Of a stretch of 64,000 bases of DNA, positions 29,123 to 37,734 are shown one piece after another; position 1 is the stretch's first letter, and the number at the start of each line of letters is the position of its first letter. This DNA comes from Ramlibacter sp. GTDB lineage: Bacteria; Pseudomonadota; Gammaproteobacteria; Burkholderiales; Burkholderiaceae_C. The DNA lies in NCBI GenBank assembly GCA_050247515.1, contig JBFWUB010000011.1:1-64000 (forward strand), given 5' to 3'. The position numbers and the translations under genes are program-made. The notes beneath the pieces were generated by a model. The model saw only the letters and a list, made by a program, of their open reading frames with translations, did no database searches and had not been told where the DNA came from.

Positions 29123-29737
29123 ATGGGCAGTTTCCTGGATGCGGTTACCGCTTTTCCCACTGCGGTTTTCACAACATTGCTGGTTGTTGTGTTGTTCTAT
29201 TGGTTGTTGGCGTTGCTCGGCGCGGTGGATTTTGAATCTGGCGGCGTTGACGCCACCGCGGATCCCGACCTGGGCACGCTCGCCGGGTATGTGGTGGCAT
29301 TCGGCCTGCATGGCGTGCCGTTTTCGATTGTCATCAGCCTGCTGGTGCTGGTGAGCTGGACGCTCAGCTGCCTGGGCGGCATGTGGCTGCTGCCCTTGTT
29401 GCCGGACACGGCGCTCGCGTACGCAGGCGGCGCCGTGCTGGCGCTGGCCAGCGCGTCGCTGTCAGTGCCGGTGGCCGCGCGCCTGGTGCGGCCCATGCGC
29501 GGCCTGTTCGTCACGCATACGGCCATCCACAACGCATCGCTCGTGGGCCAAAGCTGCAAGGTCCTCACGCAAACCGTGGACGAGAAGCTGGGCCGCGCCG
29601 AAGTTGCACAACGCGGCTCCAACCTGAACATCCGGGTCTGGGCGCCCACGCCCAACACCCTCACGCGCGGCGCCACCGCGCGCATCGTCGCCTACGAAGA
29701 CAAATCCGCGCGCTACCGCATCGAGGCCGAGTCCTGA
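29123..29737 (+). CDS. NfeD-like (YqiJ/YuaF-type) membrane protein, with TM helices and a C-terminal OB-fold. First gene of the flotillin operon.
   Basis: RBS ggagga upstream of the ATG, three TM helices, then a beta-rich C-terminus. Positioned immediately upstream of the SPFH gene, as in yqiJK and yuaF-floT. Confidence 0.6.
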   Translation: MGSFLDAVTAFPTAVFTTLLVVVLFYWLLALLGAVDFESGGVDATADPDLGTLAGYVVAFGLHGVPFSIVISLLVLVSWTLSCLGGMWLLPLLPDTALAYAGGAVLALASASLSVPVAARLVRPMRGLFVTHTAIHNASLVGQSCKVLTQTVDEKLGRAEVAQRGSNLNIRVWAPTPNTLTRGATARIVAYEDKSARYRIEAES

Positions 29738-29794
29738 ACCTGGCCGGCTCATCCATTACCTTTGACAGTTTTCATTTCACCCCAGGGAGTCTTC

Positions 29795-31837
29795 ATGGAG
29801 CCCATCCTCATCTCGGCCGCCGCCATCGCGGTTTTCATCCTCAGCCTGTTCCTGATGTTCGCGAAGTTCTATCGCAAGATAGAGCAGGGGCACGCCCTGA
29901 TCGTCAACACCATGCGGGCCGAGCCCACGGTCACCTTCACCGGCTGCATGGTGTACCCGGTCATTCACAAGGCGGAGCTGATGGACATCTCGGTCAAGAC
30001 GATCGAGATCGACCGCTCTGGCAAAGAGGGGCTGATCTGCCGCGACAACATCCGCGCCGATATCAAGGTGAAGTTCTTCGTGCGCGTCAACAAGACCGCG
30101 GAGGACGTGCTCAAGGTAGCGCAAGGCATTGGCTGCGCCCGCGCATCGGACCATGAAATCCTGGAAGACCTGTTCTCCGCCAAATTCTCCGAAGCGCTAA
30201 AGACGGTGGGCAAGTCGATGGAGTTCGTGGACCTGTACCAGGCCCGTGACAACTTCCGCGACGAAATCATCCGCCAGATCGGCGACGACCTGTCGGGCTA
30301 CGTGCTGGAAGACGCCGCCATCGACTACCTGGAACAGACGCCGCTGGCCAAGCTGGACGGCAGCAACATCCTTGACGCGCAAGGCATCAAGAAAATCACC
30401 GAACTGACGGCGGTGGAAAACGTGCGCACCAACGAGCTGCGTCGCAACGAGGAAATGCAGATCAAGAAGAAGAACGTGGAAACGCAGGAAGCCATGCTGG
30501 AACTGGAACGCCAGGCCGCCGACGCCCAGGCCCGCCAGAACCGCGAGGTGGCCACCGTGCGCGCTCGCGAGGAGGCCGAGACGGCCAAGATCCAGGCCGA
30601 GGAAAAAGCCAAATCTGAACTGGCGCGGCTGCAAGGCGAGCAACTGGTGGCGGTACAGAGCGAAAATACCCAGCGCGAAAAGGAAGTGGCGGAAAACAAC
30701 CGCAAGCGTGCGGTCGCGATCGAGGAGGAAAAAGTCACCCGTGCGCGCGACCTGGAAGTGGTAGACCGCGAGAAGGAAGTGGCGCTGCAGAAGATCGACA
30801 AGGAACGGGCGCTTGAAGTGCAGAAGAAGGCCATTGCCGACGTGATCCGCGAGCGCATCGTGGTGGAGCGCACCGTGGCCGAACAGGAAGAAGCCATCAA
30901 GGAACTGCGAGTGGTGGCCGAGGCCGAGCGCACCAAGAAGTCCACCATCATCCTGGCCGAGGGCCAGGCCGAGGAGAAGATGGTGACCGAGGTGAAAGGC
31001 GCCGAAGCGCAGGAGCGCCGCGCCCGCCACAAGGCCGCCGAGGAAATGACCCTGGCCGACGCGCGGCTGAAGGTCGCGGAAAAATCCGCTGAATCCCAAA
31101 AACGCGAAGCCGAGGGCAAGGAAGCCCTGGCGGCCGCGCCGGGCCTGGCCGCCGCCCGGGTCATGCTGGTCACGGCTGACGCCAACCAGAAGCAGGGCCT
31201 GGCCGAGGCCCAGGTGATCGAAGCGCGCGCCCAGGCCGAGGCCTCGGGCCTGAAGGCCAAGCTGGAGGCCGAGGCGCAAGGCAAGGCCAAGCTGGGCCTG
31301 GCCGAAGTGCATGTGCGCACCGCGGACGCCGACGCCACCATCAAGGTGGGCGAGGCCGAGGCCCAGACCGTGCAGGCCCGCTTCTCGGCCGAGGCCAAGG
31401 GCCTGCGCGAGAAGTTCGAGGCCATGAGCGCGATGAGCACTGAAACCCGCGACCACGAGGAATTCCGCATGCGGCTGGAAAAGCTGCATGTCGAGAACAT
31501 GAAGGGCATCGACGCCCAGATGGCGATTGCCAGGGAGCAGGCCGAAGTGCTGGGCAAGGCGTTGGGCAACGCCAAGATCGAAATGGTGGGCGGCGACGGC
31601 GCGTACTTTGACCGCTTCGTCAACGCCCTGGCCGTGGGCAAGGGCATTGACGCGGCCATTGGCAAAAGCGACACGCTCAAGGTGGGGCTGAAGGATCATT
31701 TGTCCGGTGAGCGCAACATGGTCGATGACGTGAACCGCCTCGTTGGCGCGCTGGGTGCATCGTCGGGTGAGCTGAAGGACCTGACGCTGGCGTCGCTGCT
31801 GGCCAAGGTCGGCAAGGATGGCCGCAAGGCCGACTGA
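29795..31837 (+). CDS. Flotillin-like SPFH/band-7 protein (YqiK/FloT type) with a long E/A/K-rich coiled-coil tail.
   Basis: N-terminal TM helix, SPFH region (HALIVNTM...IRADIKVKFFVRV), then about 400 aa of EA-repeat coiled coil. 680 aa. Confidence 0.85.
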   Translation: MEPILISAAAIAVFILSLFLMFAKFYRKIEQGHALIVNTMRAEPTVTFTGCMVYPVIHKAELMDISVKTIEIDRSGKEGLICRDNIRADIKVKFFVRVNKTAEDVLKVAQGIGCARASDHEILEDLFSAKFSEALKTVGKSMEFVDLYQARDNFRDEIIRQIGDDLSGYVLEDAAIDYLEQTPLAKLDGSNILDAQGIKKITELTAVENVRTNELRRNEEMQIKKKNVETQEAMLELERQAADAQARQNREVATVRAREEAETAKIQAEEKAKSELARLQGEQLVAVQSENTQREKEVAENNRKRAVAIEEEKVTRARDLEVVDREKEVALQKIDKERALEVQKKAIADVIRERIVVERTVAEQEEAIKELRVVAEAERTKKSTIILAEGQAEEKMVTEVKGAEAQERRARHKAAEEMTLADARLKVAEKSAESQKREAEGKEALAAAPGLAAARVMLVTADANQKQGLAEAQVIEARAQAEASGLKAKLEAEAQGKAKLGLAEVHVRTADADATIKVGEAEAQTVQARFSAEAKGLREKFEAMSAMSTETRDHEEFRMRLEKLHVENMKGIDAQMAIAREQAEVLGKALGNAKIEMVGGDGAYFDRFVNALAVGKGIDAAIGKSDTLKVGLKDHLSGERNMVDDVNRLVGALGASSGELKDLTLASLLAKVGKDGRKAD

Positions 31838-37037: not shown

Positions 37038-37038
37038 G

Positions 37039-37734
37039 ATGGTCAATGCGCTTCAGCACCTGCTGGGCCAGCTGGACACCTCGCTGGCCGACCTGCGCCT
37101 GTCTGACGCCGAGAAGCACAGCCTGGTCACTGCCCTGCGTCAGGCCCAGCCACCCGAGGAGGGCTTCAGGCAACTGCGCAATGAAGCCTTCCGGCTGGCG
37201 CGCGCCAGGCTGGCGGGCAACGAGCCTGCGGCGGTGTTGCGATGGCTCGAATCAGTGGTGCGTGCACTGGACGTCGCGCGCGCGCCGGCGCTTTCGGTAC
37301 GGTCGCAAGCCTGCTTCAGCCCAGGAGAAGACTGCCTCAACACCATCATTCGCCATCTGCGCGACGCCCGAAAATCCATTGACCTGTGCGTATTTACCGT
37401 CTCGGATGATCGAATCACGCGGGAAATACTGGCAGCCCATGCACGCGGTGTCGCCCTGCGCTTCATCACCGACAACGCCAAGGAGTTTGACGCCGGCAGC
37501 GATGCCGCCAGGTTGCGCGCGACCGGTGTGCCCACGGTGGTGGACCGCACCGACGCCCATATGCACCACAAGTTTGTAATCGTGGACGGCCGCTGGCTGC
37601 TCAACGGCAGCTACAACTGGACGCGCAGCGCCTGCGACCACAACGAAGAAAACCTTGTGGTATGCAACGACCCCGCGCTGGTACGGCAGTTTCAGGGCTG
37701 CTTTGACCAGCTCTGGCGCCATTTGAGCGAGTAG
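37039..37734 (+). CDS. Phospholipase D-family protein with a single HKD motif (Nuc-like endonuclease fold) and an N-terminal extension of about 85 aa.
   Basis: HMHHKFVIVDGRWLLNGSYNWTRSA matches HxK(x4)D(x6)GSxN exactly. It is translationally coupled (TGAgATG) to the giant AAA+ gene. Confidence 0.75.
   Translation: MVNALQHLLGQLDTSLADLRLSDAEKHSLVTALRQAQPPEEGFRQLRNEAFRLARARLAGNEPAAVLRWLESVVRALDVARAPALSVRSQACFSPGEDCLNTIIRHLRDARKSIDLCVFTVSDDRITREILAAHARGVALRFITDNAKEFDAGSDAARLRATGVPTVVDRTDAHMHHKFVIVDGRWLLNGSYNWTRSACDHNEENLVVCNDPALVRQFQGCFDQLWRHLSE

Follow-up and report, generated by a model that had tools for sequence, protein, structure and literature searches.

Introduction

An operon class in which a flotillin, a small membrane protein and a large ATPase are encoded together has been described in silico by Ravi, Anantharaman, Aravind, Gennaro and colleagues (mSystems 2024, PMC11237479; bioRxiv 2020). 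The operon that they report combines a CesT/Tir(YjfI)-PspA dyad with three proteins, one of which is a 3-transmembrane (3-TM) protein prototyped by YqiJ/YuaF, and in some Proteobacteria it also has a gene of the phospholipase D (PLD) superfamily with an HKD motif; shortened versions that lack PspA occur widely among bacteria and archaea, with Dokdonia given as an example in the supplement (PMC11237479). For this class, they inferred a chaperone-like or ESCRT-like part in assembling sub-membrane complexes under envelope stress. In the present work, we analyzed a four-gene operon of this kind that lies on the plus strand of Ramlibacter sp. contig JBFWUB010000011.1, within a stretch of 64,000 nucleotides (nt) that we refer to as the window. 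All positions are those of the window, and the four genes (29123-37734) and their products are abbreviated g1 to g4. A preliminary description of this DNA had proposed that they form an undescribed membrane-microdomain system situated in a defence island.

Operons that share part of this arrangement are also known. YqiJ and YuaF are short NfeD homologues of SPFH2 flotillin operons (PMC2636767), and both the E. coli yqiJ-yqiK and the B. subtilis yuaF-floT operons show the same order of nfeD-like gene and flotillin gene, g1 resembling YqiJ and g2 resembling YqiK; unlike the locus studied here, they have neither an AAA+ ATPase nor a PLD gene. By its literature description, the Pseudomonas aeruginosa bac cluster PA3732-PA3729, i.e., BacA/YjfI, BacB/PspA, a short NfeD and the flotillin PaFlo3, is arranged like the upstream half of the full operon, but it too lacks the giant ATPase and the PLD. 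This YjfI-PspA-NfeD-SPFH cluster has been linked to the osmotic shock response, biofilm, rhamnolipid and swarming (PMC10948618, PMC13086221).

Results

The locus is an abbreviated member of a published operon class

Comparison with the operons of Ravi et al. showed that the Ramlibacter locus is an ordinary abbreviated member of the published class. Its four genes match the 3-TM YqiJ-like protein (g1), the protein with TM segment, band-7 domain, coiled coil and flotillin region (g2), the propeller/coiled-coil AAA+ protein (g3) and the PLD(HKD) protein (g4), while the one feature without a counterpart is the CesT/Tir(YjfI)-PspA dyad, which belongs to the full form only. Since a tblastn search of the 64-kb window with Variovorax queries found neither YjfI nor PspA, the locus represents the abbreviated form. 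The architecture is therefore not undescribed, as the preliminary description had held, because Ravi et al. report the same protein set, including PLD in some Proteobacteria. Apart from the missing dyad, the locus differs from their operon in a 223-amino-acid (aa) membrane protein encoded upstream and in a TelA neighbour. Their paper leaves the AAA+ clade unassigned, does not note an affinity to MitoPLD and gives no experimental function, and what we add are small increments: g4 has MitoPLD as its nearest relative of solved structure, g3 is placed in the MoxR clade, and a further gene lies upstream of the operon.

From sequence and gene order, we predict that the operon encodes a flotillin-centred, PspA-related system of envelope stress or membrane dynamics, a reading to which we assign a probability of roughly 55%. 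Support comes from the synteny of the core genes, linkage to YjfI-PspA, strong sequence constraint, sequence clusters that follow taxonomy, a stable chromosomal slot, housekeeping flanks, the folds modelled for g3, the co-inheritance of a PLD with intact HKD motif, the name "cardiolipin hydrolase" used by JGI and the published phenotypes of the related P. aeruginosa bac cluster, and also from the fact that Ravi et al. reached the same functional inference independently in silico (PMC11237479). The genes and domains concerned are as follows.

29123-29737, plus strand: g1, 204 aa, 3-TM YqiJ/YuaF-type (NfeD-like) membrane protein with a C-terminal beta-rich domain
29795-31837, plus strand: g2, 680 aa, flotillin-family SPFH protein with N-terminal TM segment, SPFH domain, long Ala/Glu-rich coiled coil and C-terminal domain
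31851-37037, plus strand: g3, 1,728 aa, cytoplasmic protein with beta-propeller, coiled coil, helical middle domain and AAA+ ATPase
31956-33305, plus strand: DUF3686 domain of g3, the N-terminal beta-propeller (Pfam, AlphaFold2, Foldseek)
33666-33917, plus strand: DUF7902 segment of g3, inside the central coiled-coil region (~aa 490-850; Pfam PF25472, E 1e-21)
35760-36191, plus strand: AAA+ core of g3, with Walker A, Walker B and sensor-1 motifs
37039-37734, plus strand: g4, 231 aa, single-HKD PLD-superfamily hydrolase with a helical N-terminal extension of ~90 aa

The boundaries and strand first proposed for the four genes hold: all are plus-strand open reading frames at exactly these positions, their GC content at third codon positions (0.78-0.85) argues that they are coding, and proteins 100% identical to g3 and to g4 have been deposited at NCBI from a Ramlibacter sp. 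metagenome-assembled genome (MAG). The tight, translationally coupled junctions proposed at the same time were found between g2 and g3 (13 nt) and between g3 and g4 (1 nt), but g1 and g2, separated by 57 nt with an AGGGAG ribosome-binding site, are close and not coupled. No terminator-like site was seen on the plus strand at the three junctions. A scan for sigma-54 promoters (TGGCAC-N5-TTGCW, at most 2 mismatches) returned 45 matches where 59 were expected, none of them upstream of g1 or of the gene for the 223-aa protein, and sigma-70 and terminator scans of the locus were uninformative.

Conservation of the g1-g2-g3 core across phyla

Homologues of g3 were counted at E ≤ 1e-10 in a set of 5.8 billion proteins, which yielded 4,990. 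The top 120 share 67-82% identity with g3 and belong to Burkholderiales (Ramlibacter, many Variovorax, Caenimonas, Rhizobacter, Aquabacterium, Ideonella, Hydrogenophaga and others). The propeller domain falls into 737 clusters at 50% identity, and in a species-representative collection of 185,579 genomes at least 586 stretches encode a g3 relative. Synteny was surveyed in the best 80 of these at least 586 loci, which span Beta-, Gamma- and Zetaproteobacteria, Myxococcota, Actinomycetota, Acidobacteriota and one Clostridia MAG; together with the window and five loci fetched earlier, they make up 86 sequences.

The order g1-g2-g3 was constant in essentially all 80 loci, i.e., in at least seven phylum- or class-level lineages. 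g2 stands directly upstream of g3 in 83 of the 86 sequences (44-87% identity) and g1 upstream of g2 in ~75-78 loci, the misses in both cases being truncated contigs. Between phyla, g3 retains 45-50% identity over ~1,650 aa and g2 ~50%. Thus, g3 is the invariable third partner of g1 and g2, and the notion of an NfeD and SPFH microdomain core with an attached giant ATPase is supported. The survey reproduces the gene arrangement that Ravi et al. published. The PLD gene is present in 23 of the 86 sequences (about a quarter), in Proteobacteria only; its identity to the PLD of the window tracks that of g3 (r 0.97), and in the close relatives checked the distance between g3 and g4 ranges from a gap of 1 nt to an overlap of 4 nt. 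A YjfI(DUF2170)-PspA dyad lies directly upstream in ~36-38 loci (~40%).

Sequence clusters of g3 follow taxonomy, with few exceptions. The Lampropedia and Comamonas copies (three loci, L039, L049 and L050) are nearest to gammaproteobacterial ones, at 59-65% identity compared with ~50% to other Burkholderiales, and the copy in the Clostridia MAG (L058) is nearest to that of a myxobacterial MAG (62%). Judged from these identities, the exceptions indicate occasional horizontal transfer or mis-binning.

The YqiJ-like and flotillin pair

The sequence of g1 has diverged too far from the partners in yqiJK and yuaF-floT for any Pfam match, including NfeD/DUF1449, and searches of NCBIfam, PADLOC and the PDB, with the single sequence and with a profile, were likewise without a match. 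A profile of 25 orthologues, compared with E. coli YqiJ, gave an hhalign probability of 91.6% (E 8e-7); the similarity spans TM2-TM3 and the C-terminal domain and exists at the profile level only. In the alignment of these orthologues, hydrophobic segments are seen at three places, and the C-terminal domain is conserved and rich in beta structure; for this domain, sequence searches matched neither solved NfeD structures nor the Pfam NfeD/DUF1449 models of an NfeD-type OB-fold. g2 by itself gave a sub-threshold match to Flot in Pfam, and its family profile aligned with E. coli YqiK at an hhalign probability of 99.9% (E 3.5e-32, 29% identity across 412 columns). Pfam Band_7 was matched by 4 of 24 g2 orthologues, and sequence searches of the PDB with g2, single and as a profile, were empty. 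By these profile comparisons, g1 and g2 are a conserved SPFH2-type pair, consisting of a YqiJ/NfeD-like protein and a YqiK-type flotillin.

The giant ATPase

The AAA+ module at the C-terminus had been taken for the sole recognisable part of g3, which is not correct. In Pfam, g3 matches DUF3686 (E 1e-197, aa 36-485) and DUF7902 (aa 606-689) in addition to AAA (29.2 bits, cutoff 21.2) and AAA_5 (23.9 bits, cutoff 22), and none of the five families returned is a MoxR-specific model. AlphaFold2 modelled aa 1-520 (pLDDT 88, pTM 0.86) as an N-terminal helix and then an all-beta domain, with helices predicted from aa 437 on. When this model was compared with the PDB by Foldseek, every top match was a beta-propeller (DCAF1, IFT, Elp1, PON1, prolyl oligopeptidase), and the similarity was of a generic kind (TM-score 0.27-0.42), with no specific PDB neighbour. 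The model of aa 850-1728 (pLDDT 84) comprises a helical middle domain and the AAA+ module.

The AAA+ module carries a Walker A motif PPGYGKTT (K1314), a Walker B motif YLDDIQH (D1376-D1377) and sensor-1 N1424, while R1442 is located within MAGNPYTESGDVFKIPDMLANRAD. The region is near-invariant across phyla, including the stretch MAGNPYTESG..FKIPDMLANRAD. Walker B (35976-35981) has the form hhhhDD and not the usual DE, and was invariant in 13 and in 26 diverse homologues. In the model, the AAA+ fold is that of the MoxR/dynein clade, closest to MoxR and clade-7 members. Compared with MoxR-class ATPases (CbbQ, NorQ, RavA) and midasin/dynein modules, the AAA+ part of g3 is fused to ~1,250 aa of propeller, coiled-coil and helical domains. 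MoxR-class ATPases are usually paired with a VWA partner, whereas this operon has no VWA/MIDAS partner, and neither the operon nor the immediate flanks in the window contain a VWA gene; the DD form of Walker B is a further difference from the MoxR class. Since these ATPases usually work with VWA partners, we note that genes of ~376 aa and, for a VWA-domain protein, ~555 aa accompany the module in two Ramlibacter-lineage genomes (L089:3420-6264 and L090:15967-18796).

In HflK/C-FtsH and prohibitin-m-AAA, an SPFH scaffold is coupled genetically or physically to an AAA+ machine at the membrane. The SPFH-AAA+ coupling seen here is alike by analogy and not by homology: unlike FtsH in the HflK/C system, g3 lacks both a TM segment and a protease domain, and it belongs to the MoxR/dynein clade and not to the classical FtsH clade. 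Both of these systems are cited in PMC2636767.

The PLD-superfamily hydrolase

g4 matches Pfam PLDc_2 (E 2e-30) and has a single intact HxK(x)4D(x)6GSxN motif, HHKFVIVDGRWLLNGSYN, at aa 176-193 (nt 37564-37617), which is unbroken in 21 of 21 orthologues. Taken together with its distribution, the sequence identifies g4 as an accessory, co-inherited hydrolase whose catalytic HKD motif is intact. Its closest solved relative is mammalian MitoPLD/Zucchini (PLD6), with E 1.2e-26 and ~38% identity over aa 92-228 (~137 aa), followed at a distance by Nuc (E 1.5e-10) and NucT (E 1.3e-6). Like MitoPLD/Zucchini, g4 has a single-HKD PLD fold, but no N-terminal membrane anchor was seen in it; a soluble helical extension of ~90 aa stands in that place. 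MitoPLD is far closer to g4 than bacterial Nuc is. The bacterial g4 clade may be near the origin of eukaryotic PLD6.

The NCBIfam scores of g4 are below the respective cutoffs for every NucT model (at best 54.6 bits, cutoff 297), DrmC (43.5, cutoff 133) and DpdK (25.7, cutoff 100). We also considered a cardiolipin or phosphatidylserine synthase and rejected it: with one HKD motif only, and with 22.3 bits against a cutoff of 290 for bac_cardiolipin and 16.1 against 281 for ClsB, g4 is not of the two-HKD cardiolipin-synthase type. Orthologues are named "(mitochondrial) cardiolipin hydrolase" by JGI and "nuclease" by NCBI. The substrate could be lipid or nucleic acid, and since Zucchini/MitoPLD is best established as a single-stranded RNA nuclease, a lipid role, suggested by analogy, is speculative. 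With the PLD proteins of known defence systems (DISARM DrmC, Mokosh MkoB/C, Dpd DpdK), g4 has the PLDc_2 domain in common (PADLOC E 7e-10 to 1e-9), but none of the partner genes of DISARM, Mokosh or Dpd is present at this locus.

Genomic neighbourhood

Four genes adjoin the operon.

27136-28185, plus strand: Fic-domain gene with a winged helix-turn-helix-like region at its C-terminus, flanking the operon
28264-28935, plus strand: gene for the 223-aa membrane protein, two N-terminal TM helices and a helical C-terminal domain, no family match
37774-38994, minus strand: TelA gene on the other flank, convergent
39034-40956, minus strand: fusion of major facilitator superfamily (MFS) transporter and acyltransferase, adjoining TelA

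The gene for the 223-aa protein lies outside the coordinates previously given for the operon. Its product has a conserved motif, FHARHIxLxYLPDALKTY. In Ramlibacter WS9 (L089) and L091, the gene directly upstream of g1 encodes a homologue with 54-61% identity (8-nt gap in L091), and in L090 one is found next to the module. We regard the gene as a probable fifth component, specific to the lineage. Searches of Pfam, PADLOC and the PDB gave no match for this protein, and the idea that it is an XpaC-like partner of TelA found no support in Pfam or the PDB.

The module occupies a slot, Tgt-DUF2145-YiaAB on one side and TelA-MFS/acyltransferase on the other, that is common to the window, to WS9 and to L090 (g3 82% identical), and Variovorax loci likewise share flanks among themselves. 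The wider window is core chromosome, with RecG and Tgt and, at 0.1-9.5 kb, what is probably a ribosomal-protein operon; the 16 short, tightly packed genes found there on the minus strand (101-9491, GC content 0.57-0.62) probably form a ribosomal-protein/secY/rpoA operon.

Fic and TelA do flank the operon, as the preliminary description stated, but both adjacencies are lineage-specific. Among the 85 other loci, which include a duplicate contig of this genome, TelA matched that duplicate contig only, and Fic gave one weak match on the opposite strand. TelA is kept in two of three further Ramlibacter-lineage loci, and the MFS/acyltransferase fusion is kept beside the module in two of the three. 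The Fic gene matches the single-gene SoFic model of PADLOC (E 6e-50) and lies in a low-GC stretch (0.585); since this is a low-GC islet and other genes, namely a 376-aa gene and a VWA gene, hold the same position in WS9, Fic is an independent neighbour. Neither gene was accepted as a member of the system: TelA is convergent and conserved in the Ramlibacter lineage only, and Fic is unique to this genome. The fusion next to TelA we take to be, possibly, a lysophospholipid transporter-acyltransferase of LplT/Aas type, and TelA, the fusion and the module may constitute a local membrane-homeostasis gene cluster.

Further genes that accompany the module elsewhere

Three other genes were seen in related loci and are absent from the window. 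A Zn-ribbon protein of ~180 aa is encoded between g2 and g3 in 14 Burkholderiales loci (e.g., L090:9450-9989 and L005:9423-9980). In ~12 loci, the PLD gene is followed by one for a protein of ~260 aa that has a CorA-like "GMN" motif (AVFGMNLRSG) and a pair of TM helices at its C-terminus, features that suggest, from sequence, an ion-channel accessory; examples come from Variovorax, Eleftheria and Hydrogenophaga (L002:15992-16768, L004:15938-16717 and L005:15974-16765). Between PspA and g1, a protein of ~110-125 aa with two ribbon-helix-helix-like repeats (SDQIR..L.L...KRPRLTVSL) occurs in L002 (6604-6978) and 16 further loci, and by its sequence it may be an operon regulator.

On the Pseudomonas fluorescens megaplasmid pQBR103 (L086, NC_009444.1 84437-97641), a complete yjfIJKLMC-type operon with a rhomboid protease leads straight into g1-g2-g3. 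This arrangement unites two PspA operon classes that Ravi et al. kept separate.

Discussion

A system of the predicted kind could operate as follows. g1 and g2 would form an oligomeric SPFH scaffold or cage at the inner face of the cytoplasmic membrane. g3 might dock on this scaffold through its propeller or coiled coil and, at the expense of ATP, build up, remodel or take apart the scaffold or its client complexes, a step for which the analogues would be FtsH in HflK/C, m-AAA with its partner prohibitin, and Vps4 in its work with ESCRT-III/PspA. g4 would then modify a local substrate, most plausibly an anionic phospholipid, by turning cardiolipin into phosphatidic acid as has been proposed for MitoPLD, and could thereby change curvature or promote resealing, a nucleic-acid substrate being the alternative. 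A more specific form of this proposal, which we hold tentatively and regard as rather doubtful, is that the triad is an SPFH cage with a dedicated MoxR-like motor. Hexamers of g3 would dock on flotillin/NfeD and drive remodelling with ATP, and in the proteobacterial subset the machine would position a MitoPLD-like enzyme that makes phosphatidic acid from cardiolipin, so that damaged membrane is resealed or fused; g4 would then be a bacterial PLD lineage unusually near to eukaryotic MitoPLD/Zucchini in a lipid context. To the idea that the same machine is a membrane-damage-triggered abortive-infection system, we give about half that weight.

Several points weigh against the envelope-stress reading. 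The nuclease activity established for Zucchini/MitoPLD, the DD form of Walker B, which puts the ATPase kinetics in doubt, and the lack of a VWA gene, which does not fit a simple MoxR model, are three of them, and the absence of YjfI and PspA from the window is a fourth. The family is also rare overall and patchy in its distribution (at least 586 stretches in 185,579 species; 737 clusters), as would fit an accessory conflict system as well. Finally, a paper on P. aeruginosa states that data are lacking for the ATPase-bearing operon (PMC10948618), and our literature search likewise met with no experimental work on a member with the ATPase.

The defence interpretation would make the operon an anti-phage or anti-plasmid system of the abortive-infection type, in which flotillin/NfeD senses membrane perturbation, the AAA+ protein transduces the signal and the PLD is a nuclease or membrane-lytic effector. 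Pairs of an ATPase and a single-HKD PLD do occur in known defence systems, and g4 weakly matches the MkoB, DrmC and DpdK models; however, a search of PADLOC-DB v2 gave no meaningful match for any of the four genes, i.e., none at all for g1 and g2, noise for g3 (E 1e-4 to 6e-3, with LmuB at 8.5e-5 on the coiled coil and IetA at ~5e-3 on the P-loop) and generic PLD matches for g4, the DrmC and NucT scores being far below the family cutoffs. Moreover, since the PLD is missing from about three quarters of the loci, including all those of Actinomycetota and Myxococcota, the conserved core has no obvious effector. The patchy, low-frequency distribution counts for defence, as do at least one inter-class transfer (the gamma-type version in Comamonas and Lampropedia) and the few megaplasmid copies, including that of pQBR103 next to a DNA methyltransferase gene. 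Against this, g3 homologues were found in 0 of 50,697 phage records, in none of IMG/VR and in 13 of 72,556 plasmid records, the latter being megaplasmids, chromids or mislabelled chromosomes. The SoFic-like gene ~1 kb upstream in the window and a kinase and UvrD-like helicase downstream of the module in L091 could likewise be read as a defence setting, but Fic is a lineage-specific insertion whose position differs in WS9, and a rough scan, made without a matched control set, of 114 genes flanking 38 diverse loci detected ~2-3 genes specific to defence (a type IIG restriction-modification enzyme and an MzaA), none of them recurrent, next to generic ABC, kinase and 2OG matches to defence models. 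No Pfam family occurred in more than three of the 114 genes, integrases and transposases were not among the recurrent families, and the flanks were metabolic or housekeeping. The PspA and TelA families are said to have a historical link to phage stress and resistance, reportedly drawn by Anantharaman and co-workers in 2012; our literature search on anti-phage systems found nothing relevant on SPFH/NfeD. The locus is stable within genera and its sequence is very slow to change, which is atypical of defence genes, and one outcome that the preliminary description had named as refuting its reading has largely been observed: g3 is syntenic with flotillin, widespread in Burkholderiales genera and without enrichment near mobile or defence genes. 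The defence-island claim thus finds no support in the model searches, the phage and plasmid records, the flanking genes or the core-chromosome context, and we consider a defence function unlikely.

Database names point in another direction, since DUF3686 is labelled "ATPase involved in DNA repair" in Pfam, g3 "DNA repair ATPase" in RefSeq and g4 "nuclease" at NCBI. A DNA-repair or nucleic-acid-processing machine would agree with the homology of g4 to the Nuc/NucT and Zucchini nucleases and with weak RuvB-model matches on the P-loop of g3. However, these matches reach 15 bits where the cutoffs are ~290, the LmuB/SMC-like match lies in the coiled coil, no DNA-binding or repair domain was found in g3, its AAA+ fold is of the MoxR/dynein clade and not that of RuvB or clamp loaders, and its invariable partners are two membrane proteins. 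In the literature, we found no evidence for the "DNA repair" name, no mention of "DUF3686" and no work that combines flotillin, "DNA repair ATPase" and operon, and such a role appears highly improbable. It is scarcely more plausible that the genes are adjacent but not one unit, with g4, g3 or both being passengers beside an ordinary yqiJK-type pair. The PLD occurs in ~25% of loci, another gene separates it from g3 in several Gammaproteobacteria, and the g1-g2 junction measures 57 nt, all of which would suit such passengers; but across phyla, wherever the sequence of a locus reaches far enough, g2 is followed by g3, and the PLD diverges in step with g3, from which it is separated by a single nucleotide here and as closely or with overlap in near relatives.

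The value of the finding is limited in that the architecture has been published, the locus is one more abbreviated member of the class, with nothing out of the ordinary, and a defence role is not supported. Bacterial flotillins are without a clear molecular mechanism, and in this operon class they have an obligate ATPase partner, whose synteny extends from Actinomycetota to Proteobacteria; in some lineages PspA, a member of the ESCRT-III family, and a MitoPLD-like hydrolase are added. If the proposal is true, the operon would offer a tractable system in which to study how SPFH microdomains are remodelled at the cost of energy and how membranes are repaired by way of lipids, and it could decide whether enzymes of the PLD6 type have lipid substrates in their native bacterial context.

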